IMG/VR virus record: IMGVR_UViG_3300028027_000001 | Length of the DNA stretch: 64,000 bases | Direction: 5' to 3' (one strand) | Origin: a virus | Part shown: positions 5,255 to 63,752 of the stretch, piece by piece | Layout of the letters: each line of letters begins with the position of its first letter | Numbering within the stretch: the stretch's first letter is position 1 | Notes under the pieces: model-generated | Seen by the model: the letters and a program-made list of their open reading frames with translations, nothing else | The model's database searches: none | Told to the model about the DNA's origin: nothing | Translations under genes and position numbers: made by a program

Positions 5255-6022
5255 TTACAATTTACGTTTAACTGTGGTTTTAAATTCGGTGAATGCTGGT
5301 TTATGTGTTGGGTTTTCGATGTCAAATATGCGTTTCACGTTTTTGAATATGTCGATATTTTCCTCAAATGTGCGAGTCGATTCAACTATTTCCCAACCTT
5401 TACCCTGCAATTTGTCCGCGTTTGGTTTACGTTTGCTGGATTTTAGCCATAATATACCACATCTATCGATTGGTTTATGGAAACATTCAGTGTAACATTG
5501 AGCATATACCGCTGTTTGTAAATCATAGGTTGTGTGTAAATGGTTGGATGTTTTTAAATCAAGTACCCAACGTTCACCATTCAATTCAATAATCAAATCG
5601 CACGTGCCTGCTACTTTCAATTCGTCTGAAAATAGGTGCACTTCGGCTTCAATTAATGTTGGATGGTGAGTTTCCCAAAAATCAACAAATCTTAATAACA
5701 TTTCCCAAACATCGGGACTACATAGTGGTTGCCCGGATGGGGAAAGAAAATGTAGCTCTTCACCATTTAAATACGCCTCAGCCATTTCGTGTACTTGCGT
5801 ACCTTCTTCTGCTGCTTTTTTAACTATATATTCCGAAGCAAACCCAACTTGTTTCAACCATTTTTCGAAATGTGGTCCTTTTGGATATGAATTTAATACA
5901 TAAGTAATACTTGGGTAATAATGTCCGTTACGGCGGTAATAACGTGAATCGGGAAGGGTGATTTGTTGAGCATCATCAGATATCTCTAAAATGCGATTAT
6001 ACGATCTTTTAATTTTACTCAT
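5255..6022 (-). CDS. PD-(D/E)XK family exonuclease
   Basis: YPSIT..L, GT.VH...E, AGTCDL, LDLKTS, Q..VYA motifs. Confidence 0.85.
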   Translation of the reverse strand: MSKIKRSYNRILEISDDAQQITLPDSRYYRRNGHYYPSITYVLNSYPKGPHFEKWLKQVGFASEYIVKKAAEEGTQVHEMAEAYLNGEELHFLSPSGQPLCSPDVWEMLLRFVDFWETHHPTLIEAEVHLFSDELKVAGTCDLIIELNGERWVLDLKTSNHLHTTYDLQTAVYAQCYTECFHKPIDRCGILWLKSSKRKPNADKLQGKGWEIVESTRTFEENIDIFKNVKRIFDIENPTHKPAFTEFKTTVKRKL

Positions 6023-6945
6023 ATGAGTTGTAGTTTATGTTCCATTAATCTATATTGAGTTAATGGTTGGGTTGTTTGTATTAATTTAGTGAATGTTTCA
6101 AAACCCAGCTCTGAAGGGTCTTTACCACTTAATTCAACTAAATATACTTCTTTGCCTATATTGAGTAGTTCTTCACAGAACTCAATTGCCTTTTTAATTG
6201 CATCTTTGTCTAATGCAATATACACTTTTTGTACACGGGATTCAACCAATTTTTTCATTAGTTGTGGTTGAATATTTTTTCCCAATAATGGAATCACGTT
6301 ACGTTTAATAGCGATAGCATCAAATGGTCCCTCACATAAAATGATAGGTAAATCCCAGTTGATAAACATTTCAAATGCTATTATATCACGCGATACCATT
6401 GGATTACGGTATTTAACATAAGGTTCATGTTCAAACGATCGTGCAGTAAAATAGTTGAGTTTACCATTACCATCATATGAAGGTATAACTACCATATTAT
6501 TATATAAACCACCTTCACAATATCCAATACCATATTTAAGTATATCTTGTGGAGTTAAACCACGTGATTTTAAATAACGATATGCATGTCTTGCTACACG
6601 TGAGTTATTGTCTATGAATGACTTATATTCTTTTGGTAATTCGAGAAATATTGTTTGAGTTTGATTAGATTCGAAATACGTTGATTTAACGTGTTTACTT
6701 AATTCACTCATATGTTCCGGTGAAACATTAATTCGCTTAAATAAACTACGCACTGTTTGACCCTTAACACCACACGCCCAACATGCCCACCTGTGTTTTC
6801 CTTCGGAGTTTTCTAGTAATTGTATTTCTAATTTAGGTTTTGGGTGATGACATAACGGGCAGTGATAGGCAATATTACCACGTGATGTACGTTTACCTTG
6901 CCCTAGTACCGAATTTACCAAATTAACTAATAACTCATTTACCAT
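6019..6945 (-). CDS. DNA primase (zinc finger plus TOPRIM)
   Basis: CPLC..H...CWAC zinc ribbon, YLKSRGL, CEGPFD, LDKDA. Confidence 0.9.
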   Translation of the reverse strand: MVNELLVNLVNSVLGQGKRTSRGNIAYHCPLCHHPKPKLEIQLLENSEGKHRWACWACGVKGQTVRSLFKRINVSPEHMSELSKHVKSTYFESNQTQTIFLELPKEYKSFIDNNSRVARHAYRYLKSRGLTPQDILKYGIGYCEGGLYNNMVVIPSYDGNGKLNYFTARSFEHEPYVKYRNPMVSRDIIAFEMFINWDLPIILCEGPFDAIAIKRNVIPLLGKNIQPQLMKKLVESRVQKVYIALDKDAIKKAIEFCEELLNIGKEVYLVELSGKDPSELGFETFTKLIQTTQPLTQYRLMEHKLQLI

Positions 6946-12546: not shown

Positions 12547-15500
12547 TTAGAGCAAACCTTTCTGTGTAAGATCGACAATAAATGCGTCAATGTCTTTATC
12601 TAATTCGGGAACTACAAATTCAGGTTTAATAATATATGGTGCTGATGAATTATTTGGTCGGAAACCTTTAATAATAATTTGACTAGCATCATCTACATAT
12701 CGGGTTAATGAGTAGTGGTTAATGTTGATGTTAGTTAAATCTACATCGGGTGCGAAATTTATTTTTAACATTGTTGGATATTCTAATCGCTCTACAGAAT
12801 CTACAATATATGCTTTTTCTTGGTCTCCTTCAAATCTAAATATGTCTCCTCTATCTACATCCCACTCAGTAAGTATGGGGTTAAAACCTGAATTTTCTAT
12901 GTCTTTCATATACCATGTTGGGGTTGTTTGGTTGGTGTCATATGCACTCACCATAAATGATTGGGAGGTAAACATGGAATATGTGAATCCTGGGGATATT
13001 TCAGTGGATTGTTGCCATATATTTGAGGGAATGTTGGTTGTTGGTTGTGCTCCGGGGAGTGGATATTGGTTTATTGCCAGGTTTGATCCTCTAATTTCTG
13101 CAATTGTGTTTCCATTTTCTAAATGGAGACCCAGGGCTATTTTATCTCCACCATACTGAGCGATTAGTTGGGGGGTTAAGGTAAAGGAAACTTCAAAATT
13201 GTAATTATCCGTGGTATTGAAATTTCCCATAGCGTATCCTCTTTGTGCTAGAATACTACCTTGAGTTAAATTAACTATTGCTATATATCCAGTTCCTATC
13301 CCGTCATTGTCAGAAAAATTTAAAGTCATATAAGCGCCGATACTTATAACAACCCCATCAATTGCGGCTTGTGGATTGATAGTATAATAATTATAGAAAA
13401 GTTCATATGGGTTGGGGTAATCAAATCCTTGAACTAGATAATTATTAATAGTGATTGGGGAGGAATGGTTGGTAGTTGTATCATAAGGGGTTCCATTTTG
13501 GAAATACTGGTTTGGGAGATAGTTGGAGTAAATACCAGTATACCCATAATTACCCACAGCTGGTTGGACAAAATTTTGTAATTCAATACTACCAGACCAC
13601 TGAGGTGGTTTAGAACCTGATTGATTATATAATATTGGTTCAATTCTAGTAGCGCCACGAATTATTTCTCTATATGATTTGTTGTTGTCTGGGCCTATTG
13701 CTGTGGTTTGGTCTCCACTTTCATTACGAGAACTGACGTATACCCGCTCCCCAGTTATAAATGTGCCTTGGGAGTTTTGGAGTGAATTGGGAGTTGAATT
13801 AGGTATACTTACAGTCCCATCAGCGTTAATTAAATATTTAATATGAGCCCAAGATGCATCCATATATTCTGGTACCCATCCGGCCATACCATCACAATAT
13901 GCTACGGATGTTTTTAAATGATCTATAGATGGTGTTTTACCAAGAGTGCCTTCATTATATGGACTGTCAGTCCATTTATTAGTGCGTTCTGAAGTATTTT
14001 TAACACCGTTATATCTTGGGTTTTTATGGCGCACGGTAGTATAATTTGAATCTTGTACCGGTGCCTTATACGCTATGCTTCCAGTAATTAAATCAAAATT
14101 TATTGGGGTTTGTGTTCCTCCGGAATAGTCTACATCTTCGAATGTAGTGCTTAATCTAGCATCATCTATATTATTTAATAATGGGTTAAATTCACTATTA
14201 GCGAATGATGAAATGTCTCCTCCAGGGAATGGGGTTGATAACGATTGTGTAGTTACCACTATGTGGTTCCCAGGTAATTCACCATTGTAAAATTCAGATT
14301 GATCAACATATATTTTGTCAACCGAACCGGATAATGTTTGTACAACTTCAGTTTTGGATTGGGATGGGTATAGGGTTTGGTTTATTACTCCACCAGTGCC
14401 TGCATTCACATCGTATATTTTGTTTTCATCGTAATTATCCCATTGTGGTTTAACACTACCCGATAATTCAATGTTAGTATGTGTTAGTTGGGGTTGGGGA
14501 TATCGATTACGTTCAAGTAAATGTTGTTTAACCACAATACCAGATGCTAAACTAGTGCGAGCAGGGACAAAATCACGAATCATTTTGAATAATGAATTGT
14601 CAAAAAATTTGATCAATCGTATAAAATCGCCTAACTTGTAGTTGCTTAAATATTTGGTAAAATATTCGTTACGAAGGGTATCTAAATCAGGATATGATTG
14701 CAATGAGGATGATCTGAATGATGGGTCACCTATGTACTCACCTATGTTAAAGTATCCTAATTGGGAAATTATATCATCGTTTAATTCGTTTTGTGGGGAA
14801 AATGCTACCTCCAAATAATTGATATTTGGTGTGTAGCTAGAACTAGCGTTGGATTGTTGCGTTAAAGACATAAATGGTGATAACGTATCACCAGATGGAA
14901 GTACGTTGTTTTCCACGCGTATTTTATCAGATATCGCGTTTTTAATACCCACCACAGGTTGGTTAAAATAGAAATATTCTGTGTTTGATACAAAATGTGG
15001 TGTTACATCAAAATAAAATTCACTATGATTAGCAAATGAATGGGTTGTTTCCCACCCACCTATAACTTTAGGATGAATAGAAGATGTTAACATATATAAT
15101 TCACCACCAACAGGGGCTCTAAATGCCAATGTTTCTGGTGATTCGTTTAATGTGTTGCCCTCTATTGAATATGGGTTCATGGTGTAATTGTCAAACGCTT
15201 CATTGCTTACCACATTTGAATAGTATCTGATTTCTTGATATGAGCCTGAAAATGGTGAATAAGTACCAGCTAATGCACCTGTACCATCATAAATCCCAAC
15301 ATCGTAATGTATAATGTCATATCCCGTAGGGTCAGCAACAGTAAATGCTGCTGGGAAATAGGATATGTCGGATAGTGTCCAATTATGGCCTGCGGTTGTT
15401 GTAGTTGATGTTGAGGAAAAACCAATAGTGTCTGAATTATTTCCACCACCCAATAATTTATTTTGGGCATGTAATGTGAAATTATCACCATCACGAGTAA

Positions 15501-17664
15501 CCATAACAGACCACCATTCACCATCGAAAAATGGTAAAGTAACATTTGCTGTAGAAGTATTGTTATATGTGTCTGGGTATAGGGTTAATGTTGCATATTG
15601 GTATTGTGGGTCTATTATTGAACCATTATATGATTCTGTAGTATATGCTGTTCCATTATATGTTAAAGTAAGGGCTGATCCTCCATCTCCATACCACACA
15701 CTTTGGGAATATGGAATGTTATTATATGGAAGGTCTTCGGTTTTAAAACGAAACATAAGTGTGGATGGAACATTGTCTTCTGAATTCCAATCACTATTTA
15801 AATCCCAAGATGAAGATATGAAGTTACTACCACTAGTTGAGAATGCATAGTTGAATTCGTTTTGCCATTGATCCCAGTCGTTTGTGTTTACTTTATCTTT
15901 ACCACCATATTCGTTTATTCTTAATATAGTATCAGGGATACCATATGAAGTAATAAGTGCGCGCAATCCGGGTAGGGTTCCTTTTGATTTAAGCAGGTAT
16001 GGCAAATTATGATAAATGCGTTTATATAGCGATTTATTCACATCATCCAACGCCATATTGTCATTTGAAGCAGATATCAATGTATCAACATATTCAAACC
16101 CAGATGAAGCAGGGAATGATTCAGTAATGTTTGGGAATGGGAATAAACTACCATGAGGGGTTAAACCTAAAAACGCAGTATATAAATCTTCATTACTGAA
16201 ATTGTTTTGATATAATTTAACACCAAAATCTCGTATAGCATCCGCTACTAGGTCTTTTGATATACCTTGCTCTAAACGGTTATCTGAATTATATTTTTGT
16301 GTTACTTCATTGTAGTATATCCAGATATTGTCATAATGCTGACCAACCATGTTTACAAATAAATCATATGGTTGATTTGCTGGGTCTTCTCTTAAGTATT
16401 CTGGTATTGAGTAATATAAATTATCGGGGTTGTTAATGTCGTATAAGGATGCTGATAGGATTTCACCACCATATAAGTTGCTATATTCGTTAGTACTACC
16501 AAACCAGGTTTCAACTTCGGTACTGTTTAGTGGAAATAATTGGTATGGTTGAGTAGATGTTGATTTAGGCCACGCGTGTGAACCTGATGTATAGTATAAG
16601 AAATATTCATATCCATCGAAATGGGTAATTATATCGTCTATTTTATTGAAATATGTTGATTTGCTACTACTTATTTCTGTTTGTGAAGATGTTGTTGTAT
16701 CTAAAATAGATATAGCATCTTTATATTGTTCAATAAGATCTATTTTAGCATAGAAATTTTCTAAACGTGTTTTAGCTGAGCTAAAATGAATAAAATTATT
16801 AAAGTCTGTATAGTCAATATTTATGTCAATTTCTTTTTCTTCAAGTAAACTGTTCAATTGATTATGTGAACTAGTGATTGGGGATGAAATTAAATCAACA
16901 TATGATAATTCTATTGTAGAATTATTTACTTGATCTTTAACATTTAAATTAAAATTAGGACCTTTAACATTTACGATATCTGTAAAGATGATTGGTTCTT
17001 CTTCAAATAATACTTTATATGCTACTGGTTCTTCAATTACGGTATTAACCCACAATTGGGAGTTTACATCATATGAATCAGGAAGAGGTTCATATAATTT
17101 GATTAGTATAGTGGGGTTATTAGGGTCTTCATTGTCTAATAATATATTATTAGCTATAGCGAACTGATTATCTCCAAAATTTAAATGAAAATCCAAAAAA
17201 TATGAACTGGATTCGCGTTCATTAATGAAGTTAGTTGTTTTTTCAACTATATCTGTTTCAGTTAATATAGTACTATCTAATCGGATTTCAGTGCGGTCAG
17301 ATGAAAGTTCAGCTATATATAATAATTCAATAGGTGAACCAATTTTTTTATTGGTAAAATTATAGTATGTGATGAATTCTCCTTGAGTAAAACCAAGAGA
17401 TGAAAGATCATTTTCTGGGGAGAATGATATTTGTGATAAAGTATTATTACCAGATGATTGACCATCGTTTAATACTGAATAGTTTTGGAAGTTATATTCA
17501 GTGTGGAGGATATTTTTATTATTATCATATATAAAAAATTCAATACTGCTTGTACTAGACAACGATGTATTTACCTCAAATGATGGGATTAAATTAGTAT
17601 CTGTTATTTGATATGATTGGGCCGTAAAATCGGTTGCATCTATTTGGATTATTTCAGAAGCCAT
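12547..17664 (-). CDS. large baseplate wedge-like structural protein (1705 aa)
   Basis: IPEYLRED, LLKSKGT..GLRALITSYG (gp7/tail protein I-like), FVPART motifs; baseplate context. Confidence 0.7.
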   Translation of the reverse strand: MASEIIQIDATDFTAQSYQITDTNLIPSFEVNTSLSSTSSIEFFIYDNNKNILHTEYNFQNYSVLNDGQSSGNNTLSQISFSPENDLSSLGFTQGEFITYYNFTNKKIGSPIELLYIAELSSDRTEIRLDSTILTETDIVEKTTNFINERESSSYFLDFHLNFGDNQFAIANNILLDNEDPNNPTILIKLYEPLPDSYDVNSQLWVNTVIEEPVAYKVLFEEEPIIFTDIVNVKGPNFNLNVKDQVNNSTIELSYVDLISSPITSSHNQLNSLLEEKEIDINIDYTDFNNFIHFSSAKTRLENFYAKIDLIEQYKDAISILDTTTSSQTEISSSKSTYFNKIDDIITHFDGYEYFLYYTSGSHAWPKSTSTQPYQLFPLNSTEVETWFGSTNEYSNLYGGEILSASLYDINNPDNLYYSIPEYLREDPANQPYDLFVNMVGQHYDNIWIYYNEVTQKYNSDNRLEQGISKDLVADAIRDFGVKLYQNNFSNEDLYTAFLGLTPHGSLFPFPNITESFPASSGFEYVDTLISASNDNMALDDVNKSLYKRIYHNLPYLLKSKGTLPGLRALITSYGIPDTILRINEYGGKDKVNTNDWDQWQNEFNYAFSTSGSNFISSSWDLNSDWNSEDNVPSTLMFRFKTEDLPYNNIPYSQSVWYGDGGSALTLTYNGTAYTTESYNGSIIDPQYQYATLTLYPDTYNNTSTANVTLPFFDGEWWSVMVTRDGDNFTLHAQNKLLGGGNNSDTIGFSSTSTTTTAGHNWTLSDISYFPAAFTVADPTGYDIIHYDVGIYDGTGALAGTYSPFSGSYQEIRYYSNVVSNEAFDNYTMNPYSIEGNTLNESPETLAFRAPVGGELYMLTSSIHPKVIGGWETTHSFANHSEFYFDVTPHFVSNTEYFYFNQPVVGIKNAISDKIRVENNVLPSGDTLSPFMSLTQQSNASSSYTPNINYLEVAFSPQNELNDDIISQLGYFNIGEYIGDPSFRSSSLQSYPDLDTLRNEYFTKYLSNYKLGDFIRLIKFFDNSLFKMIRDFVPARTSLASGIVVKQHLLERNRYPQPQLTHTNIELSGSVKPQWDNYDENKIYDVNAGTGGVINQTLYPSQSKTEVVQTLSGSVDKIYVDQSEFYNGELPGNHIVVTTQSLSTPFPGGDISSFANSEFNPLLNNIDDARLSTTFEDVDYSGGTQTPINFDLITGSIAYKAPVQDSNYTTVRHKNPRYNGVKNTSERTNKWTDSPYNEGTLGKTPSIDHLKTSVAYCDGMAGWVPEYMDASWAHIKYLINADGTVSIPNSTPNSLQNSQGTFITGERVYVSSRNESGDQTTAIGPDNNKSYREIIRGATRIEPILYNQSGSKPPQWSGSIELQNFVQPAVGNYGYTGIYSNYLPNQYFQNGTPYDTTTNHSSPITINNYLVQGFDYPNPYELFYNYYTINPQAAIDGVVISIGAYMTLNFSDNDGIGTGYIAIVNLTQGSILAQRGYAMGNFNTTDNYNFEVSFTLTPQLIAQYGGDKIALGLHLENGNTIAEIRGSNLAINQYPLPGAQPTTNIPSNIWQQSTEISPGFTYSMFTSQSFMVSAYDTNQTTPTWYMKDIENSGFNPILTEWDVDRGDIFRFEGDQEKAYIVDSVERLEYPTMLKINFAPDVDLTNININHYSLTRYVDDASQIIIKGFRPNNSSAPYIIKPEFVVPELDKDIDAFIVDLTQKGLL

Positions 17665-19147: not shown

Positions 19148-20983
19148 TTAAAGGGGAGAAACGCGCCCTTTAATATCTTGTTGGGGATATTTTAATTCAA
19201 ATATGCTTGGGTCAAGGGATGGATATATTACATTATTTTGAGTTGCTCCTAATATATCATATGCATATGGTGAATAACCCAAAGAGGTACCGGCCTTATT
19301 ATCTATAGTGACAGATTTTACTGTTTGTACTCCTTTAATTTTATCTAAAATAATATATAAATCACGCAACATTATAGGTTGATTAATTTGCCATTTATCT
19401 CGATTAAAGTGGTCTTGAATAGCTGTTATACACGCTAATAATACTTCGTTATTATTTGAATTTGGAGATACTACTATTTCAAAATTTACTCCTACATTAA
19501 TTATAAATGCATCTCTAATTTCAATGTTATCCCCAATCATTCTATATTGGGATAGATAGGTACGAATATTATTTTTTAATGTTGAGGATGCGTAATCTAA
19601 TTGACCTAAAGAATTTTGAGATAAAATATATAAATTAAGTGTTTCTATGGTAGATACTTGATTATCCGTTAATTTTGGTTGTTCAATATATGCTTTAGAT
19701 ACGGCTCCAAAATCAGAAGGCATACTTAATGTTCTAATTAAGTAATCGTCTGCAGTAACTGAGCGTTGTTGAGATGCTACTAACATTAATGTATTTTGGC
19801 GGATTTCTTCAATAGTATCTCCCCCCTTCCCCCCACTGGCTGCATTGGGGTTGTTTGAAGCTAATGAGGAAAAAATATAATTAGCTGTGGTTGGGTTTAA
19901 GTTAATTTGATTGAATTTGGTATTTGTAGTGTTTACATTAATTAAAGTATTGGCTGGAGAATTGGATGAAACACCCCCTCCAGTTAAATAACGGACTGTT
20001 AGGGTTGTATTTGATGGTGAAATACCATAAGTACCAGTATATAGGAAATTTGTTGGGGAATATGCTGATGTAAGTTTTGATTTTTTTATAGGTAATCCCA
20101 TACCCACATTATTCGGGTTAGGTGAAATTTCTTCATCTATACTTGTGGGATTACCAGCACCGAATTGGATTTGGAGGTTTGAATTTGATGTAAATCTAGT
20201 AGCAAATCTTCTTTGTACCTTTTTTAAGCGAAGTAAATATGGGATATCTTTACCACTGTTAGGATCATTAATGTTAGTATTTTTAACGGGATCAATTACC
20301 ATTTCTTGACCTAAATGATCTACTTCATACCATATATTTCCATCTGAGTCAATTATATCTAATATCTTGATAAGGTTAGGGGAAGATATATTTACTGTAG
20401 CGAATTGTTGAGGTTCATTAAAGGTAAATGAGGTGGAGTTTATTGTGGCTGATATTGCTTGTCTAGATTTTTTTAATAAGTAATATTGAGGAACCCCACC
20501 GGCTGTTTGATATATAGATACTTCGGTTGGGTCTTGTGAACTAGATAGAGAAAAATCAATTTTATCTTGTATTATAAAGGAAGAATTGTTGGATGATATT
20601 GTGGTGTTTTCTCCTATAGTTAATGCATAATCATAATCAGGTACCACATTCCCTCCACCTATTGATTTTGCTGGGACTTGTTGGTAAAAATCTATAATGG
20701 TTTGGGCGGCTGTTGTTGTTTTTGGTTTATAACCAAACATATAAGCTAACTCATATATGTTGTTGGTTTGTTGTGCATATTGAGTAAAATTTTCTTGGAT
20801 CTGATTATCTAAATAAAAACTCAAAACGTCTCCAACATATGCTGCTTGTTCCATAAACATCATTCCTGGGGAAGATGGGGAAAAATCATTATAAGTGTTG
20901 GGGAAATATGTTTTAGTATATTCTATTAATCGTTGTCTGAAATCGGTAAAATCTCGATTAATATATTTGACATCTCTGTTCAT
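19148..20983 (-). CDS. baseplate wedge subunit (gp6/baseplate J-like)
   Basis: DF..FRQRL..Y...YNDFS..SPGMMF.E..AYVGDVLSFYLD; GG...DTIEEIR; RSVTADDY. Confidence 0.9.
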   Translation of the reverse strand: MNRDVKYINRDFTDFRQRLIEYTKTYFPNTYNDFSPSSPGMMFMEQAAYVGDVLSFYLDNQIQENFTQYAQQTNNIYELAYMFGYKPKTTTAAQTIIDFYQQVPAKSIGGGNVVPDYDYALTIGENTTISSNNSSFIIQDKIDFSLSSSQDPTEVSIYQTAGGVPQYYLLKKSRQAISATINSTSFTFNEPQQFATVNISSPNLIKILDIIDSDGNIWYEVDHLGQEMVIDPVKNTNINDPNSGKDIPYLLRLKKVQRRFATRFTSNSNLQIQFGAGNPTSIDEEISPNPNNVGMGLPIKKSKLTSAYSPTNFLYTGTYGISPSNTTLTVRYLTGGGVSSNSPANTLINVNTTNTKFNQINLNPTTANYIFSSLASNNPNAASGGKGGDTIEEIRQNTLMLVASQQRSVTADDYLIRTLSMPSDFGAVSKAYIEQPKLTDNQVSTIETLNLYILSQNSLGQLDYASSTLKNNIRTYLSQYRMIGDNIEIRDAFIINVGVNFEIVVSPNSNNNEVLLACITAIQDHFNRDKWQINQPIMLRDLYIILDKIKGVQTVKSVTIDNKAGTSLGYSPYAYDILGATQNNVIYPSLDPSIFELKYPQQDIKGRVSPL

Positions 20984-42508: not shown

Positions 42509-43222
42509 TTAATTTTGTCCTTTTGTTTTTTCAGCATACTCCCATCTATAACCATGGGAAGTTTTCTGTTTTCCTTTCAATGCGCTAGTGATACCCCCAT
42601 TAGTGCCTTTATAACCTAAAGCATTTTCTGCCTGAGTTATTGAATCAAAACGTTGTATTATTTCTCCTTCTAAACTTAATTGATAAACTGGTTTGTTTTT
42701 CTTTTCAAAGAATGATGGTTTATGTTTTTTACCTCTTAATAAGTGGGACCTGTTAGGATATGTTCTAGATTTTCGGGTGGCTATGGTTTTATCTATGACT
42801 TCTTGGGGGACTTTATATCCTAATCTAGCTTTTGATTGGCGTTCCCTAGTTTCAATAGATCTCTTTTTCCCTTTATTAGATTGAGATCTTCTTTTATTTT
42901 GATCCTCAGTCCATACTATTCCCTTATTACCTCCTTCTCCCCCTTCACTAATGTTAACTAACATACCATTGGGATCTACATTTTTTCTCCCAAATTGTTT
43001 GATATAATTAATCTCCATTTCACATGCTTGTGATTTAGTTAAATTTTCATGAACTAATTTTACTGTGGGATCACCATGTTTTTCCACGTATCTTTTCCAT
43101 ATTGGGTTCCTCTCCCCAAAATTATAAGGTCTAGATTTAACTGATCCTATTCCTACATAAAATACTTCTTGTGTTGTAGGGTTTAGGTGAAAATAAACAA
43201 AATATATATTATCTTTTGACAT
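42509..43222 (-). CDS. GIY-YIG homing endonuclease with NUMOD3/NUMOD1 DNA-binding repeats
   Basis: VYFH...FYVGIG, E...I..FGR...LVN.SEGGEG, KGKKRS.ETRER.S, KPVYQ.SLEG.II..FDS...A; start revised to MSKDNIY. Confidence 0.85.
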   Translation of the reverse strand: MSKDNIYFVYFHLNPTTQEVFYVGIGSVKSRPYNFGERNPIWKRYVEKHGDPTVKLVHENLTKSQACEMEINYIKQFGRKNVDPNGMLVNISEGGEGGNKGIVWTEDQNKRRSQSNKGKKRSIETRERQSKARLGYKVPQEVIDKTIATRKSRTYPNRSHLLRGKKHKPSFFEKKNKPVYQLSLEGEIIQRFDSITQAENALGYKGTNGGITSALKGKQKTSHGYRWEYAEKTKGQN

Positions 43223-43444
43223 CGTTTTTGTATGGGAATATACAAAACGATATGTTAACATCCTAGTATTCTTTCTAAAAACCTTTACTTCTTTAATTAT
43301 TTTTATTATGAATCTCTTTTAGTTAATTTAACTCTAATTACTTCTCCTTGACCGACAATGATGTTGCCTATTTTAACTGACTTATCTTTAAGATAAAATG
43401 ATGTTACCTTACCGGCTCTATTCTTAACATATATGTAAGGCATA

Positions 43445-51612: not shown

Positions 51613-52659
51613 CTAGTCTTTGATAATCATCTTTTTAGAGTCGATTACTTTATTGTCAACTATTAATCGGTAATAGTAGATTCCTGCAGGTAAATGTTCT
51701 TTTTCAATTTCAATTTTGTTTTTTTCAGGGTCTAATTCATATTTTAAATTAAAATTAGCATAAGTAGAATACTTAATGTCAATGTATGATTTTGAATGTT
51801 TAGGGACAATATATTCAATTACTGTTGAGTATTTGAATGGGTTTGGGTAATTTTGACCTAGTTTAGGTACAACTGTATCCTGTTTGTCTAGTATGGATTG
51901 GTTAGGTTTTAAATAATCAACTAAAATGGATTTTGATTGAACACACCCATTTTTATCTGTTACATTTACCAAATAAGTTCCCGCTTTTATTGTTTTTAGG
52001 TTTTGTGTTTTAGCACCATTACTCCAAGAATATGAGTATGGTGGTGTACCATAATTAACACTTATTGATATTGAACCATTACTAGCTGTTTTAGTGTTCG
52101 GTTTAATAACAGTTTCATCAATTGTCATTGGTGTTAAAGTATCTATAACATAATGAAAACCAACAGTTTCCATAGTACATCCCTTAGAATCAACTACTCT
52201 AACCCTATATGCACCCGCTCCCACATTTCCAGTATTTGAAATGAATGGTTTATTGTTCCTATCAAAATAATAGAATGTATATGGAAACAACCCACCACTA
52301 ACAAAATTTTCCATATGAGATAAACCACCAGGACAAACTATTGGGGTAAATGTTGTTGTTAATCTAAGCTTAAGTGGTTGTGGAATTGAGTCAGAAACTG
52401 TTTTAACACATCCCTTGGTGTCTGTTACCTTAACCGTATATTTACCCGCCTTAGATTGCAGATTCTGCGCATTATACCCGTTAGACCACTCATATTTGTA
52501 TGGGCCTGTTCCACCATCTACTTTAGTTAGTAATATTTTCCCATCTCCACCAAAACAATTTGCTGATACTGGTTTGGCTGTTACAATCATTTTTGAACAA
52601 TCTTGAGTATAGGAAATGAAGGGGGTTAGAAAAATAGCAATTAAAGTAGATAGTTTCAT
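51613..52659 (-). CDS. secreted SprB-repeat protein with T9SS type A C-terminal sorting domain
   Basis: Sec signal peptide; three repeats C.G...G.I....GGT.PY.Y.WSNG.......AG.Y.V.VTD.KGC; C-terminal LGQNYPNPF...LPAGIYYYRL......KKMII. Confidence 0.9.
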   Translation of the reverse strand: MKLSTLIAIFLTPFISYTQDCSKMIVTAKPVSANCFGGDGKILLTKVDGGTGPYKYEWSNGYNAQNLQSKAGKYTVKVTDTKGCVKTVSDSIPQPLKLRLTTTFTPIVCPGGLSHMENFVSGGLFPYTFYYFDRNNKPFISNTGNVGAGAYRVRVVDSKGCTMETVGFHYVIDTLTPMTIDETVIKPNTKTASNGSISISVNYGTPPYSYSWSNGAKTQNLKTIKAGTYLVNVTDKNGCVQSKSILVDYLKPNQSILDKQDTVVPKLGQNYPNPFKYSTVIEYIVPKHSKSYIDIKYSTYANFNLKYELDPEKNKIEIEKEHLPAGIYYYRLIVDNKVIDSKKMIIKD

Positions 52660-54285: not shown

Positions 54286-55332
54286 TCAATTTGATAATGG
54301 AATTTTAATGGTTGGGTGTGATTGATAATTTTCTAAAGTAAAATCACTAATAGAATATGTCGGTAAACAATCACCCACAGCCCATTTAACAATTTCACTT
54401 TCAATTTTTAAAGTTGGTAGTGGGTATGGTTCTCTATTTAATTGTTCTTTAATTGGTTCAATTTGATTTGAATAGATATGACAATCCCCCATATTAGCAA
54501 TTAGTTCATCCGGAATCATATTCACTTCTTTAGCGATTATTTCTAATAATAAGCCATAAGATGCTAGGTTGAATGGGGTGCCTAATGGAACATCTTGGCT
54601 TCGAGCATTATACATTAATGAGATTGCTCTTTTAGGAACAGTATCTCCATATATTTTAGGTTCACCTCTGTATAGGTATTTATTTGCCTCGTGTTTTGGG
54701 TCTTCAGCATTTCTAACCCAGTCTACGTTATCAATAACCCATTTCTGTCTTTCATCATCACTCAACTCTTTGGTGTAAAATTGAAAGCTATAGTGACATG
54801 GTCGTAAAATCATATTATCTAATTCACCAACATTCCAAGCTGAAACGATGATACCTCTATCGTCTGGGTTTGTTTTGAGTAGGTGGATTGCATTTGCTAT
54901 TTGGTCTATTATTTTTCCATTATATTGAATTGATCTCCAGCCGGCACCATAGATGGGACCTAGATTAAACATTGAATCATGGAAGGAATGACCCCCAGTT
55001 TTTACCTTTTGTTTAATTTCTTCAAGTGTGTATGGGGAGGAACATGAGTTTTTATATTTTTTAAACCAATCCCCGTCCCAAATAGAAATGTTATCTTTCC
55101 ATAAATGTCTAATATCTGTTGAACCATTAAGAAACCATAAAAGTTCACCAACAATACTTTTCCAGTGAAGTTTTTTCGTAGTCAATAATGGAAACCCGTC
55201 TGACATTTTATGTCTAATTTGTCTACCAAACACAGAAATTGTTCCAACTCCAGTCCTGTCTTGTTTTTTTACTCCATTATCTAAAATATCTTGAAGCAAT
55301 GCTTGGTATTGTTTATCTAAATTGTTTGCCAT
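54286..55332 (-). CDS. thyA: thymidylate synthase
   Basis: DRTGVGT, FPLLTTKK, ELLWF, LGPIYG, L.PCH, RSQD..LG.PFN..SY, GDCHIY.N. Confidence 0.97.
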   Translation of the reverse strand: MANNLDKQYQALLQDILDNGVKKQDRTGVGTISVFGRQIRHKMSDGFPLLTTKKLHWKSIVGELLWFLNGSTDIRHLWKDNISIWDGDWFKKYKNSCSSPYTLEEIKQKVKTGGHSFHDSMFNLGPIYGAGWRSIQYNGKIIDQIANAIHLLKTNPDDRGIIVSAWNVGELDNMILRPCHYSFQFYTKELSDDERQKWVIDNVDWVRNAEDPKHEANKYLYRGEPKIYGDTVPKRAISLMYNARSQDVPLGTPFNLASYGLLLEIIAKEVNMIPDELIANMGDCHIYSNQIEPIKEQLNREPYPLPTLKIESEIVKWAVGDCLPTYSISDFTLENYQSHPTIKIPLSN

Positions 55333-55362: not shown

Positions 55363-55650
55363 CTATCGGCCTAGTACAATTCCTCTTTTAATATCATATT
55401 TGAATGGATCTGCCGGTCCTTTTCTAACAGCATTGTAATCTTCATGGTCACCATCCCACCAATCACCTCCATTCTCCTCACTATAAAAATCTCTACATAC
55501 TTCGATATGTTCAATTCTATCTTTAGTTACATCTCTAAATCCACTTTCATATCCTTGAACGTATACTTCTAAATTACCATCTAATGTCATTAAATGGTTG
55601 ATTAATTCGTTAATAGTCATAACCGAATAATTTATCATATGAATAATCAA
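55363..55650 (-). CDS. hypothetical protein
   Basis: MT..ELI..L...D....V.VQGYE.G; true start probably the internal Met. Confidence 0.65.
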   Translation of the reverse strand: MIIHMINYSVMTINELINHLMTLDGNLEVYVQGYESGFRDVTKDRIEHIEVCRDFYSEENGGDWWDGDHEDYNAVRKGPADPFKYDIKRGIVLGR

Positions 55651-58081: not shown

Positions 58082-58738
58082 TTACTTTTTTCTTGAAACC
58101 AAAGAATAAGGATCATCATCTACACTGTCATTCCATCCACCCAATTCCTCCAATTTAGATAAATGGTATTCGTCTAATTCAAAATGAACTAAATCAGAAT
58201 GGAATTGACCTTGTCTACCTGTTTCAATCCACTGGATGTCACTTTTAGTGAATGTATTACCAATATATAGGAAATAACAATTGTAGCATAGTAATTGAAC
58301 GTTATTTAATCCCCAATGGGTTCTATTTCCATCTATAAAATTAAGTAGTAATGGTGGTTTGTTATCAATTGTTCTACGTTGTGAAAAACCACACGCATAA
58401 CATTCCTCCTTCATATAACCAGATTCAATCATACTTGCTCTGATTTTATCTGGGTGGAAACTAGCTGCTGATACTTCTCCGTTTATTATTTTAAGTATAT
58501 GGGGTAATGTTTTTGCATTTGGGTGAGGGCTAGATAAAAATTTCTTAATACCTTTACCACATTGGTTTTTATGCACGTCAAATAATGATTGTCCTGTGGC
58601 TTCATCGGTATAAGCCTTCATGTATCTTTTAACATGTTGGTAGGAACAATTCAAGTATCTTGAAGCGGCTCTAACTGACTTTGTCTGTGACATGGCCGCT
58701 AAAATCATTTCTTTAGTTAAATGTAAAGCTCTTGGCAT
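58082..58738 (-). CDS. HTH plus degenerate HNH zinc-finger protein
   Basis: SVRAASRYLNCSY..VKRY helix-turn-helix; CYACG...LNFIDGN...NNVQLLCYNC. Confidence 0.7.
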   Translation of the reverse strand: MPRALHLTKEMILAAMSQTKSVRAASRYLNCSYQHVKRYMKAYTDEATGQSLFDVHKNQCGKGIKKFLSSPHPNAKTLPHILKIINGEVSAASFHPDKIRASMIESGYMKEECYACGFSQRRTIDNKPPLLLNFIDGNRTHWGLNNVQLLCYNCYFLYIGNTFTKSDIQWIETGRQGQFHSDLVHFELDEYHLSKLEELGGWNDSVDDDPYSLVSRKK

Positions 58739-59571: not shown

Positions 59572-60744
59572 TTATAAGTTTATTAATGTGTGAGATAAAT
59601 CTTCTAAATGTTGGATATGGACCTTAAATATATCTGCTTCAAAATCTCCAGTAAATCCAGGACCATCTTTAATGATTTGTGGGAAGTTATGCAATATATG
59701 GATACTATCAGTAGTCAATTGTTTAGCATCAAATTCAATTACAATGTCATTTTCACTAATAGGATCATTATGGCCAATACACATTACTCTTTTAGATAAA
59801 TCGTATGTTGTATTATGCTGTTCCTGGTCAAGATAATGCGAATATAACACTTGCATTTCGTCCTCAATATAAATCCTGTCACACCACGGTTCAAACGCTT
59901 CTAACAACGCTAAATTACAGTTTTTAACAACATATGCAATGTTGTATACTGGTGGAATGATTGGGTACTGGAATTCATCATTTTTAATCCATGATTTCCA
60001 TTTGCGCAAATAGTTACGTTGTGCTCGTTTAGATACTATTTTAAAATAATCATCATCCGTTCCCACTTTATCATTCCATCTGTGCCCACGACATGTTAAA
60101 TGATAGACAAAAGCATCTCTAGATTGAATTAATTCATACCCAGCTAGTATCCAACGTTGAAATATATCTGAGTCTTCATAAGGGAATGGAGCAAATAATG
60201 GGTCATGTCCTCCTATTGCTTGGAAATCTTTTTTATAGATAATCCAAGGTGCGAACATGCCTTTTGTTGTTTGATCTTTAAATTCAATTTGTGCGTCGGC
60301 AACAAATGTTTCAAAAGCATCTATATCTAATGTGTCAAAATCCATTCCAAAATCACGAATGATTTTTTCTTTACCTTCAGGATGTAATGGTGGTTCGATT
60401 CTAGTACCACAAACAACAGTTCCAGGTTTGATATGTTTAACTAGGTTTTCAATATAATTAGGTCCTAGGATCATATCGGCATGGATAATACCTACAATTT
60501 CATTAGTAGCTAACTCAATCCCTTTATCATATAAAATAGTATGACCTACTCGTTCTTCACTCCTAATAATTCTTGTTTTATTATTAGGTAATGTTTCTAC
60601 TGTTTGCATCCATTCCCAAGTTCCATCAGTTGAACCATCATCTAATAAGATGATTTCAGCTTCTGGAGCATGTTTTAAGATAGAGGCATATGCATTTTGG
60701 ATATGCTGGAGGTTGTTGTACGATGGTAATATTAAACTAATCAT
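59572..60744 (-). CDS. GT2 family glycosyltransferase (start revised to MISLILPSYNN)
   Basis: ISLILPSYN, DDGSTDGT, HADM, GGHD..F....EDSD. Confidence 0.9.
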   Translation of the reverse strand: MISLILPSYNNLQHIQNAYASILKHAPEAEIILLDDGSTDGTWEWMQTVETLPNNKTRIIRSEERVGHTILYDKGIELATNEIVGIIHADMILGPNYIENLVKHIKPGTVVCGTRIEPPLHPEGKEKIIRDFGMDFDTLDIDAFETFVADAQIEFKDQTTKGMFAPWIIYKKDFQAIGGHDPLFAPFPYEDSDIFQRWILAGYELIQSRDAFVYHLTCRGHRWNDKVGTDDDYFKIVSKRAQRNYLRKWKSWIKNDEFQYPIIPPVYNIAYVVKNCNLALLEAFEPWCDRIYIEDEMQVLYSHYLDQEQHNTTYDLSKRVMCIGHNDPISENDIVIEFDAKQLTTDSIHILHNFPQIIKDGPGFTGDFEADIFKVHIQHLEDLSHTLINL

Positions 60745-61430
60745 ATTTTCTGTATTGTTAGTCCCCATATAACGTTAGGGGTGTTTATATCATAATATGG
60801 GTAATATTTTGGGTTATTAATTTCTGGTGAGGTTTCATCCCAATTTACATAATCTTGGGATATATAAAATTTCTCATTAGAAATATAATATCCATTCCTT
60901 TCTAATTCCTTTTTAATTAGGTTTTGTCTTCTATAATCATAGTACCTTAAAAATGGCTCACCCGTTTCTTCATAATTCATATACGGGCCTGCAGGTAATG
61001 TGATTATTAATTTTGAGTTTTTATCCTTTAATAGTTTACATGACTTATTGATTCCCGCTAAATCATGATTCCATCTACAGGTATCATCTTCTGCTAAACC
61101 ATTTGCCATACGATCTCCAGCAAACCAAAAACCAAAATGTTCAAATACTGAAATTGATATTATATAATCGTATTGGTTATTTTCATCAAATTCAATAAAA
61201 TCACCTTGGATATGTGACCATTGAGTATTTTCTCTTAACCAACATCCAGGATTTGATGGTCTGATGTCGGTTGTGGTTACATTTTTAAAACCCAATTCAT
61301 GAATTGACTCTGATACTCCTTCTACTCCTCCCTCACATTCCCCAATAATTAAAACCGATTTGGTATTATCAGTTAATTGATCAGTAAAATAAGGTACTTC
61401 TACTAATTTGGTTCCTCTTAAATTAATCAT
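60741..61430 (-). CDS. class I SAM-dependent methyltransferase-like protein (DUF268-like)
   Basis: VE.PY, SVLIIG, TTTDIR, YDYIISISVFEHFG, LIITLP.G. Confidence 0.65.
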   Translation of the reverse strand: MINLRGTKLVEVPYFTDQLTDNTKSVLIIGECEGGVEGVSESIHELGFKNVTTTDIRPSNPGCWLRENTQWSHIQGDFIEFDENNQYDYIISISVFEHFGFWFAGDRMANGLAEDDTCRWNHDLAGINKSCKLLKDKNSKLIITLPAGPYMNYEETGEPFLRYYDYRRQNLIKKELERNGYYISNEKFYISQDYVNWDETSPEINNPKYYPYYDINTPNVIWGLTIQKI

Positions 61431-61455
61431 GTGTTATTTTTTGGTTTATTATATC

Positions 61456-62265
61456 TTAATATTTTAAAGGGGCACCATAATATGGAGCATCCCAATTTGA
61501 TTGCATAACTATACCCAAATATTGTTCTGAAATTTGTTGTTCTGTTATTTCTAAATGTTTGTATTCATCATATTGTTGTCCATAGTGGAATACTTTAAAC
61601 ATCGGTTCTATGGGCCATATTTTGAAGTTATTTCTGTATAATAACCACTCCCCATACCATGTAAATTCACTCGGGCAGAATCCAATTAGATCAGCAAATG
61701 TTAAATTATTTGGCTTACAGTATTCTTCTTCTAATGTTTCCCAAACATTACAATTCCATATGGATGGGGTCGGACCAAAATCATACACTCTTCCAGGACG
61801 AGAAAATAAACTTTGGATCTTTTTTCTATCGTCTTTGAATGATATCCTACAATCAAATGGTAAATTATTAAATTTACTAGTTGCTACCCAAGTATGAAGT
61901 TCTTTTTGTTCATGCATACATGTATAAGGGGTATTTACATCAAACATAAAATCACTTATACTGAATGGTTTAATAAAATATGAATCTGAATCTATCAGTA
62001 CATAATTTTCACATATGTTTAGTTTCCAAAAACTGGATTTTACTATCTGTTGAGTTAGCCATCCTGGGCCTGAGACATTGTAAATAGTTTCATCAAATAC
62101 TAAATGGGCATTTTCAAAAATTGAAAATAAATCTTGATCTTCTCTTGGGATACTGATGTAAAAAGGTATATTATCAGTATTGTGTTGTTGGATTGAGTTA
62201 TATAATACTTTAACTCTTTCTAAGTCACCCCTATATGACTTGCAGTATAAAACTATTTTATGCAT
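61456..62265 (-). CDS. GT-A fold glycosyltransferase-like protein (DUF6492-like)
   Basis: KSY..D..R, GW..QQIVK, IDSD..FI, SEF.WYG. Confidence 0.7.
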   Translation of the reverse strand: MHKIVLYCKSYRGDLERVKVLYNSIQQHNTDNIPFYISIPREDQDLFSIFENAHLVFDETIYNVSGPGWLTQQIVKSSFWKLNICENYVLIDSDSYFIKPFSISDFMFDVNTPYTCMHEQKELHTWVATSKFNNLPFDCRISFKDDRKKIQSLFSRPGRVYDFGPTPSIWNCNVWETLEEEYCKPNNLTFADLIGFCPSEFTWYGEWLLYRNNFKIWPIEPMFKVFHYGQQYDEYKHLEITEQQISEQYLGIVMQSNWDAPYYGAPLKY

Positions 62266-63127
62266 TTTTTAATCCGTTAATCATTCCTACTTCGTTGAAT
62301 ATAGGAAAATTTCCCCACTTATCCAACCATTTTTGAATGTTCTTTTTTTCCGCTTCAACTTGCCTTGGATCACTTTTACCATCAAATAATTCTAAACGAT
62401 GTGAACCTCGAGCTCCAAAATGCCATACTAGTGAAGACCCAGTTAATAAAAACTTGAATCCCTTTTGTAACATCCTTAAAAACAAATCCATATCTTCCCA
62501 GCTAGCTGGGGCGAATATAGGATCATTCCCTCCTATTTCATCCCAATCACGCTTACGGATTAATCCCGATACACCTTCTCCTTTAGGTATTTCATAGGTT
62601 TTATTAGCCCACATAAATTCCATAGCATAATCTTCAAATTCTCTAGCATTAAAATCATGATAATACGCACCAAAAATTTCTTTATCTACGATATATGTTC
62701 CAGGCCTTGAGGAAGGATTATTAAACATATTGGGTTCCATTCTGTGAGATGACACCCACAATTTTTCATCAGGATACTTTTCCAGAGTATCTAGTAATGC
62801 TTTATCCCACCATTTACCAACGTAAAAGTCTGAGTGTAAAAACATGATATATTCGGTTTCAACGCGATCCGCACAAAAATTCATTCCACCACCTATACCA
62901 ACCGGTACTTCGTTTTTATCAATGAAATATGTTAAATTGTATTGCTTAGCATTTTGTTCTAACCACTCATCTGTCCCATCGGTACAATTTTCGGCATGGA
63001 TTATGAATGGAGCGTCTGTGAAAAAGCTGTTTTTCCTAACGGAATGAACAGCTAATTTAAGATAATCCAAATTATTATAAGTGGAAATGCAAAATGTAAG
63101 ATAATGATCTTTATTAAATACCTGCAT
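62258..63127 (-). CDS. GT2 family glycosyltransferase
   Basis: ISTYNN, CTDGT, FLHSD, IGGND..F...WEDMDL..R, WHF. Confidence 0.9.
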   Translation of the reverse strand: MQVFNKDHYLTFCISTYNNLDYLKLAVHSVRKNSFFTDAPFIIHAENCTDGTDEWLEQNAKQYNLTYFIDKNEVPVGIGGGMNFCADRVETEYIMFLHSDFYVGKWWDKALLDTLEKYPDEKLWVSSHRMEPNMFNNPSSRPGTYIVDKEIFGAYYHDFNAREFEDYAMEFMWANKTYEIPKGEGVSGLIRKRDWDEIGGNDPIFAPASWEDMDLFLRMLQKGFKFLLTGSSLVWHFGARGSHRLELFDGKSDPRQVEAEKKNIQKWLDKWGNFPIFNEVGMINGLKNA

Positions 63128-63752
63128 ATAGATTATTTTGAAGGATCTGACGTTTTAATGTTTTTGGATGGTACAAACTCCATTCTTCCTCAAATGGTAA
63201 TCGGGATAATGTTTGGTAACCTTTTACTGTTTCGTGTACTTTACCTTCCCATCTAATATTTGGGTCGCGTCTGAAAATACGAAGTTGTGGGTCAAAAGCA
63301 TTAATCCAACCTTTTTCATTCATTGTCCATCCCATTTGATTAACATATATGTCTATCTCATTTGCATCACCTGATAGAGTGTTGATTCGAGGGACCCAAT
63401 ATGCGTCAATAGATGGATTTAATTCCAAGACAGCTGGTAGAGACTTAATTAAGTTCTCGTGTGGTAATTCATCTGCGTCTAAATTACAGATAAAATCTTT
63501 ATTACACATATCAATGAGTTTATTTTTCCATGATGCGAAATCACGGTCAAAGTGGCCTTTACCCCACATAAATTCATTGTTAATTGAATGGGTACGGAGA
63601 AAATTCTCCACCTCGGGATCACCATTTGCTTCATCATATAAAATGACAATGTTATCTTGTGGTCGCTTGTGCTGAAGCAAAAAGTGCACTAAACGTTGAA
63701 TCTCAAGGAATTCATTACACACAGTAACCGAGTATGAAATTGATGGACTCAT
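63114..63752 (-). CDS. GT2 family glycosyltransferase
   Basis: VCNE, DFA..KN, LDADE, PRIN, D.Q.RI......W.GKVHE. Confidence 0.9.
   Translation of the reverse strand: MSPSISYSVTVCNEFLEIQRLVHFLLQHKRPQDNIVILYDEANGDPEVENFLRTHSINNEFMWGKGHFDRDFASWKNKLIDMCNKDFICNLDADELPHENLIKSLPAVLELNPSIDAYWVPRINTLSGDANEIDIYVNQMGWTMNEKGWINAFDPQLRIFRRDPNIRWEGKVHETVKGYQTLSRLPFEEEWSLYHPKTLKRQILQNNLYAGI

Follow-up and report, generated by a model that had tools for sequence, protein, structure and literature searches.

We found that a gene on the minus strand of a 64,000-nt stretch of viral DNA (IMG/VR record IMGVR_UViG_3300028027_000001; the whole stretch is referred to below as the window) likely encodes a cargo for the bacterial host's type IX secretion system (T9SS). 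The gene occupies positions 51613–52659, and its 348-aa product is probably exported by the infected cell. A first-pass annotation, made from the letters of the window alone, had read the gene as a phage-encoded T9SS cargo and, at the same time, as a miniature relative of SprB, with masking or mimicry of a receptor among its suggested roles. The first part of this interpretation stands: the protein carries all sequence hallmarks of a T9SS type A cargo, and the gene is kept by selection in several phages. Specific ties to SprB, to gliding or to mimicry of a receptor are not supported. The layout of the gene, established from the list of open reading frames (ORFs) and their translations, Pfam and NCBIfam searches, and AlphaFold2 modelling, is as follows (residue limits of the parts are approximate):

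51613..52659, minus strand: whole gene; ATG start, 348 codons plus stop
52603..52659, minus strand: predicted Sec/signal peptidase I-type signal peptide, residues 1–19; predicted cleavage before Gln19 or Gln20, in line with the Q-rule
52375..52602, minus strand: immunoglobulin (Ig)-like domain 1, residues 20–95; a canonical SprB repeat and, behind it, a beta-hairpin; C35 and C84 are conserved; modelled strands within residues 25–92
52135..52374, minus strand: Ig-like domain 2, residues 96–175; a divergent SprB-like unit; modelled strands within residues 99–171
51910..52134, minus strand: Ig-like domain 3, residues 176–250; a canonical SprB repeat; modelled strands within residues 179–247
51868..51909, minus strand: flexible linker, residues 251–264; predicted local distance difference test (pLDDT) score below 50 at residues 252–261; length and sequence vary among homologs
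51616..51867, minus strand: type A T9SS C-terminal sorting domain (CTD), residues 265–348, at the extreme C-terminus; TIGR04183 and PF18962

The C-terminal part of the protein was recognised by two curated models of the T9SS sorting domain. TIGR04183 (NCBIfam, type A sorting domain) matched residues 271–347 with an E-value of 3.9e-8 and 33.2 bits against a cut-off of 23, and PF18962 (Por_Secre_tail) aligned residues 271–346 with positions 2–75 of its 75 (E 2.5e-6, 28.1 bits, cut-off 27). The matches end at residues 346–347 of 348 with the stop codon directly behind, placing the domain at the extreme C-terminus, where a type A CTD should lie. The presence of a complete type A CTD, proposed in the first-pass annotation, was thus confirmed above the curated cut-offs of both models. 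No match to CHU_C (PF13585), the type B domain, was obtained in a Pfam search of the 348-aa protein. A profile of the CTD alignment matched 8glj_D (E 1.3e-6), which is named ‘Por secretion system C-terminal sorting domain-containing protein’, and 8glk_D (E 1.8e-6), named ‘Endonuclease I’; we take both to be CTDs of Flavobacterium johnsoniae T9SS substrates. The gingipain CTD was matched weakly. When the whole 64-kb window was scanned with a local hidden Markov model (HMM) of the CTD, the ORF at 51613–52659 was the only match, the runner-up having an E-value of 0.46.

Structure modelling was consistent with this assignment. Folded alone on a 39-sequence alignment, the CTD gave an all-beta sandwich with a pLDDT of 94.3, which is the Ig-like beta-sandwich fold expected of a type A CTD; among the top Foldseek rows for this model are the PorU CTD (6za2) and the mirolase CTD (8qb1), with TM-scores of 0.62–0.66. 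The AlphaFold2 model of the full protein, built with eight family members (mean pLDDT 82.5), consists of three all-beta domains, a disordered linker (residues 252–261), and a C-terminal beta-sandwich, with the relative arrangement of the domains not defined at a predicted TM-score of 0.45. A Foldseek search of the full model against the PDB returned the Aureispira protein GhpA as the best match (E 1e-9), followed by generic arrays of Ig and fibronectin type III (FN3) domains.

The passenger is built of Ig-like domains and contains no enzyme domain. The SprB repeat (PF13573) was detected by Pfam with an E-value of 5.3e-14 and 52 bits, well above its cut-off of 28, in two stretches that fall into domains 1 and 3, the best one spanning residues 29–61 of domain 1. 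An HMM check thus places both the SprB repeat and the Por secretion tail above curated cut-offs. In domain 2 no SprB stretch was reported by Pfam; its predicted fold is the same Ig-like one, and despite its divergence it retains the GG..PY and G.Y.V.V.D..GC signatures. The earlier count of three SprB-type repeats is accordingly right for the two outer domains, which are canonical by HMM, while the middle one is divergent, though Ig-like. Domain 2 is the sole domain found in all variants of the family and holds most of the invariant columns, including the stretch G149-Y-R-x-R-x-x-D-x-x-G-C-T-x-E-T in an alignment of three-domain and two-domain variants. Residues 191–247 of domain 3 match phrog_2973, a ‘Hoc-like head decoration’ Ig domain (E 1.1e-12).

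The cysteines at residues 21, 35, 84, 109, 161, and 239 are all invariant (6/6) in the five three-domain proteins; C35/C84 bracket domain 1 and C109/C161 bracket domain 2, which leaves C21 and C239 (the latter in domain 3) with no partner inside their domains. The same odd pair, an N-terminal Cys and a lone Cys in the last Ig domain, is seen in a two-domain relative (P0026). This hints at a long-range or intermolecular disulfide.

At the N-terminus, a Lys at position 2 precedes a hydrophobic core (mean Kyte–Doolittle hydropathy over 10 residues of 2.6 from residue 6), which is followed by Thr-Gln-Asp-Cys; residues 1–18 have a pLDDT below 50 in the AlphaFold2 model. A Gln occupies the predicted +1 position in six of the eight family members, which agrees with the Q-rule, that is, Gln at +1 of substrates of Bacteroidetes signal peptidase I (PMC5837995). 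The signal-peptide property is kept in all eight homologs; its sequence is not conserved. Judged by these heuristics (K2, hydrophobic core, low pLDDT, and the Q-rule Gln), the protein has the N-terminal Sec signal peptide of a T9SS type A cargo, as the first-pass annotation had supposed.

PHROG searches revealed the following phage genes in the window:

6022–6945: DNA primase
19151–20983: baseplate wedge subunit
42512–43261 and 58085–58738: homing/HNH endonucleases
54289–55332, minus strand: thymidylate synthase (thyA)

Together with the use of a single coding strand (nearly all ORFs of at least 130 aa lie on the minus strand of the window), these genes bear out the phage context proposed earlier. 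The putative cargo gene is indistinguishable in composition from its surroundings: its GC content is 0.323 and its GC content at third codon positions (GC3) is 0.212, compared to means of 0.325 and 0.228 for 42 other ORFs (z = –0.06 and –0.3, respectively). It begins 10 nt past the stop codon of the upstream ORF on the same strand. The baseplate gene is approximately 28 kb away, and the surroundings consist of small ORFs and genes of nucleotide metabolism. No Pfam matches were obtained for the flanking small ORFs. Their designation as ‘early’ genes is plausible from position.

Two other regions of the window are of note. At 59572–63752 (minus strand) there are five genes, which code for three family 2 glycosyltransferases, one of them matching a GtrB-like O-antigen-conversion PHROG, a DUF6492 protein, and a 229-aa ORF to which no identity could be assigned. 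The region could be a surface-glycan or DNA-glycosylation module and is located about 7 kb upstream of the cargo gene. A 1705-aa ORF at 12547–17664 (minus strand) adjoins the structural genes and matched nothing in Pfam or PHROG.

A search of 5.8 billion proteins revealed relatives of the same size with 95% (P0002), 57% (P0003), 51% (P0004), and 47% (P0005) identity, as well as two-domain variants consisting of domains 2 and 3 (P0022) or domains 1 and 2 (P0026 and P0031). All same-sized and two-domain relatives, homologs of 39–57% identity included, have kept both the signal peptide and the CTD. The closest one, P0002, comes from a 42-kb contig (L006) of a near-identical strain, in which the gene order is the same, neighbours are 87–100% identical, and two genes are replaced. 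In a more distant relative (JGI contig L032) the neighbours are 52–95% identical, and a cargo gene with 60% aa identity occupies the same place. These independent assemblies, together with the base composition, reject a chimeric assembly with host DNA, which the first-pass annotation had named as one of two outcomes that would refute it. Between the three phages, thyA of L006 is only 68% identical to that of the window (373 versus 348 aa) in a strain that is otherwise 95–100% identical, and L032 lacks both thyA and a 95-aa ORF found at 55363–55650 in the window. By this comparison the locus is mosaic, while the predicted T9SS cargo gene has been retained.

Beyond this group, the gene was found on quite different backbones. 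The contigs with P0005 are phage-like, carry lytic transglycosylase and GIY-YIG endonuclease genes as well as a set for 7-deazaguanine synthesis (QueC, PTPS, GTP cyclohydrolase I), and share just three other genes with the window, at 34–39% identity. P0004 adjoins genes for a family A DNA polymerase, dUTPase, Prim-Pol, and a DEAD helicase. The contigs with P0026 and P0031 (L007 and L009, respectively) are phage-like as well, with small co-directional ORFs, an RNase II/R-like gene (RNB, S1), and two Metallophos genes, L007 additionally carrying SmpB and a sigma-70 family protein; they have essentially nothing but the cargo gene in common with the window. For P0003, P0022, and P0024, the surrounding sequence is too short for classification. 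Since flanking genes differ between phage lineages, the unit of inheritance is a single gene.

Neither megablast of 15 kb around the gene nor tblastn of the CTD alone (at E 0.1) yielded a match in 50,697 phage records, and 25 pattern matches among IMG/VR viral contigs included no relatives. Viral structure models derived from UniProt do include phage proteins named ‘SprB repeat’. A 642-kb genome of an uncultured phage (LR756502.1), which matches the query in nine places, contains a 1670-aa ORF (positions 2711–7723 of L011, plus strand) with 13 SprB repeats, a PKD domain, and CHU_C (E 5e-14); this megaphage appears to encode a large SprB-like T9SS cargo of type B. Finally, wac, the fibritin or neck whisker protein of RB43-like enterobacterial phages (e.g. 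KX431559.1, NC_021344.2, AY266305.1), aligns with SprB-type Ig domains over about 200 residues at approximately 28% identity, indicating that repeats of this type are also employed on the virions of phages from a different phylum.

We compared the gene with its 95% identical homolog and obtained a nonsynonymous rate (dN) of 0.027 and a synonymous rate (dS) of 0.20, i.e. a dN/dS of about 0.13 (0.13–0.14). For 14 neighbour genes of the same strain pair dN/dS ranges from 0 to 0.28. The cargo gene is, by this measure, under ordinary purifying selection. Diversifying selection was rejected for this close pair, as the value lies inside the range of the neighbours.

In a set of one genome per species covering 185,579 prokaryotic species, 20 relatives were found, all from Bacteroidota and none above 39% identity, which argues that there was no recent cellular donor. 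The two of these cellular relatives that we inspected are much longer proteins, of 654 aa (L020) and 2091 aa (L016). A phylogeny against host homologs had been called for in the first-pass annotation. A maximum-likelihood tree built from 22 rows of domain 3 plus CTD unites the seven small proteins included in it in a group of their own, with a support of 98 in the Shimodaira–Hasegawa-like approximate likelihood ratio test (SH-aLRT); the tree is unrooted, and a phage context is verified for part of this group only. The small format appears to be particular to phages. With all cellular relatives found belonging to Bacteroidota, the proposal that the gene points to a host from this phylum is a reasonable one.

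The path that such a protein would take can be outlined from the established behaviour of type A cargo, from which we infer all steps of export and processing. The 348-aa precursor would cross the inner membrane via Sec, and signal peptidase I would remove about 19 residues, exposing a Gln. The three Ig-like domains would fold in the periplasm, where the six conserved cysteines would be available for disulfides. The type A sorting domain at the C-terminus would then be recognised by the T9SS translocon of the host and the tag presumably cut off in the flexible linker, the place where a PorU-type sortase is expected to act. The resulting passenger of about 25 kDa, made of three domains, may be anchored on the outer surface or released.

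Lacking any enzymatic or catalytic domain, the passenger most likely works through binding. In Flavobacterium, mutants in T9SS and gliding show broad phage resistance, and adhesins secreted by T9SS, SprB and RemA among them, are believed to serve as phage receptors (PMC9804748). Phages of Porphyromonas gingivalis encode exported proteins that follow the Q-rule and were proposed to modify the outer membrane (PMC10367356). One possible role, which we suggest tentatively, is that the protein coats or masks surface receptors and thereby brings about superinfection exclusion or shields the progeny from debris, along the lines of T5 Llp. A change in adhesion or aggregation of the infected cell is a guess to which we give somewhat less credence. 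Competition with host cargo for the T9SS is also a guess, and quite an unlikely one; the strong conservation of the Ig domains, domain 2 in particular, argues against a pure jamming role. A more far-reaching scenario is speculative and rather doubtful. It supposes that a family of miniature SprB-type Ig proteins of two or three domains, specific to phages and tagged for the T9SS, moves as a single-gene cassette among unrelated Bacteroidota phages and is displayed on the infected cell by the host T9SS, where it would mask T9SS-dependent phage receptors, resulting in exclusion or progeny protection, with the invariant domain 2 as the receptor-binding module. If true, exclusion would here work by a new mechanism that depends on a phylum-specific secretion system.

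Explanations other than export of a binding protein have to be weighed against these data. The protein might be a virion decoration or whisker, Hoc-like or fibritin-like, with its Ig domains sitting on capsid or neck and with a beta-sandwich at the C-terminus that would bind the virion instead of being a secretion tag. T4 Hoc consists of three Ig-like domains and a C-terminal capsid-binding domain; at 376 aa, its layout is similar to that of our protein. PHROG matches to Hoc-like families (phrog_2973, E 1e-12, and phrog_3945) and to a virion structural protein family, as well as tblastn matches to wac/fibritin of RB43-like phages, fit this possibility. However, the PHROG and wac matches span single Ig domains only, while T9SS CTD models recognise the C-terminal domain with scores over their curated thresholds, and this domain shows no similarity to T4 Hoc (BLASTP E >1; hhalign probability 0.1%). 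The cleavable signal peptide predicted in 8/8 members would, moreover, remove the protein from the cytoplasm, where virions are assembled, and the gene is located far from the baseplate gene, in a small-ORF and nucleotide-metabolism neighbourhood. We consider a virion role very unlikely. Still less credible, and in our view extremely improbable, is a passenger gene with no role in the phage, either captured recently from a host or brought in by mis-assembly of host DNA onto phage DNA. The domain types are typical for surface proteins of cellular Bacteroidota, and the region is mosaic, as shown by thyA, which is 68% identical in L006 and missing in L032. Yet the gene has the same position in three independently assembled related phages, a composition that does not differ from that of other phage ORFs (z = –0.06 for GC and –0.3 for GC3), a dN/dS of 0.13, and tight intergenic spacing; among 185,579 species genomes no close cellular donor was found (≤39% identity), and the small proteins group in a clade of their own.

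Another possibility accepts T9SS export and makes the protein a competitor in the first place: an abundant cargo that occupies the translocon, the PorV shuttle or the attachment complex and so depletes host surface proteins, including phage receptors, in which case binding by the Ig domains would be irrelevant. The protein, as a small and cheap passenger whose CTD is strong and canonical, would suit such a function, the CTD being the part common to many unrelated host cargoes, and T9SS function does control phage sensitivity in Flavobacterium (PMC9804748). Conservation speaks against it, since the Ig domains, notably domain 2, are conserved across the family at least as well as the CTD, which suggests that the passenger itself is functional. 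We regard this explanation as improbable.

The reading of the protein as an exported T9SS cargo that acts by binding has its own weak points. The PF18962 score exceeds its cut-off by 1 bit only, the Foldseek E-values for the small CTD are weak (approximately 1.5e-3) with generic FN3 folds scoring similarly, and the signal peptide was called by heuristics rather than by SignalP. Nothing above shuffled expectation was found near the gene in a search for its own promoter or terminator, and there is no conserved partner gene such as a PorP/SprF-like barrel, the flanking ORFs of the window and of L003 being unrelated. Such Ig domains also occur on virions (RB43-like wac/fibritin and Hoc-like PHROGs), and a dN/dS with no arms-race signature lends no support to a receptor-interaction role. 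Finally, a T9SS in the host is assumed, and all evidence is computational. These points weigh against our interpretation. The export route has good support from the sequence, unlike the function.

In Flavobacterium-type bacteria, surface proteins that the T9SS delivers are believed to be major phage receptors (PMC9804748). A phage protein taking the T9SS route could reveal how phages re-dress the surface of an infected cell. The family is a convenient test case, being small, non-enzymatic, well conserved, present in several phage lineages, and encoded by one gene of about 1 kb, and it offers a cheap marker of host phylum for uncultured phages. The finding is solid and easily testable, and it will not surprise a specialist; the general idea has already been published, so its value is incremental until the function is tested.

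Comparison with known systems helps to place the protein. With SprB, the gliding adhesin of Flavobacterium johnsoniae, it has in common the repeat type (PF13573) and T9SS export, predicted in the case of the phage protein. SprB, however, is a giant of about 6,500 aa and carries a type B CTD (CHU_C/TIGR04131), which needs SprF, whereas the phage protein has 348 aa and a type A CTD. The repeat itself says little about kinship: a search of 1.84 billion representatives with the family profile returned 147,306 proteins at E ≤0.001, headed by adhesins of 2,000–7,000 aa, which indicates that the SprB repeat is a generic Ig-like module. The same search was swamped by giant SprB-repeat adhesins and is unusable for counting the phage clade. 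With a generic repeat, this size, a type A CTD, and no CHU_C (PF13585) match, there is no sign of orthology, and the protein was rejected as an SprB orthologue or mimic; the specific connection to SprB, gliding or mimicry of a receptor made in the first-pass annotation is not supported. GhpA, the Aureispira grappling hook protein (PDB 9flu, 9fls, and others), is likewise a Bacteroidota surface protein with strings of Ig-like domains. It is thousands of residues long and forms a filament, and the match, at approximately 15% identity, reflects a generic beads-on-a-string Ig architecture.

T4 Hoc is of similar size and likewise combines three Ig-like domains with a C-terminal domain, and one Ig domain of our protein matches Hoc-like PHROGs. 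Hoc has no signal peptide, and its C-terminal domain binds the capsid. Identity with a Hoc-like head decoration protein was rejected, given the signal peptide (by heuristics), a C-terminal T9SS CTD unrelated to Hoc, and PHROG matches confined to single Ig domains. T5 Llp, a phage lipoprotein, binds FhuA, and phage envelope proteins can block receptors. Llp would be a functional analogue only, in that it uses a host export route to the envelope and could protect from superinfection or from loss of progeny on debris; the route is a different one, and there is no relation in sequence or fold.

Phage-encoded T9SS cargo as such has been known in silico since 2019 and 2020. Sorting-domain ORFs were reported in crAss-like phage clusters by de Jonge et al. 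(2019; PMC6949934), and T9SS type A cargo, including a role in superinfection, was proposed for the ‘Cryophage’ by Bellas et al. (2020; PMC7468147). These, too, are uncultured phages of Bacteroidota with proteins that end in a T9SS sorting domain, described in silico only; the role proposed for these proteins is to exploit the secretion system of the host, superinfection exclusion being one of the suggested outcomes. In the Cryophage, the cargoes comprise an endoglucanase, a GH39 glycoside hydrolase, and a PA14-domain protein, and are hypervariable islands (PMC7468147), while the crAss-type cargoes carry BACON repeats (PMC6949934). In contrast, the protein described here is small and non-enzymatic, consists of three SprB-type Ig domains, and is encoded by a position-conserved gene under purifying selection, which phage backbones of distant or no relationship share as a single gene. 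A family of miniature SprB-type Ig cargoes was not found described in the literature searched. What appears to be new here is thus a cargo family that has a conserved position in one group of phages and has spread to others as a single gene.

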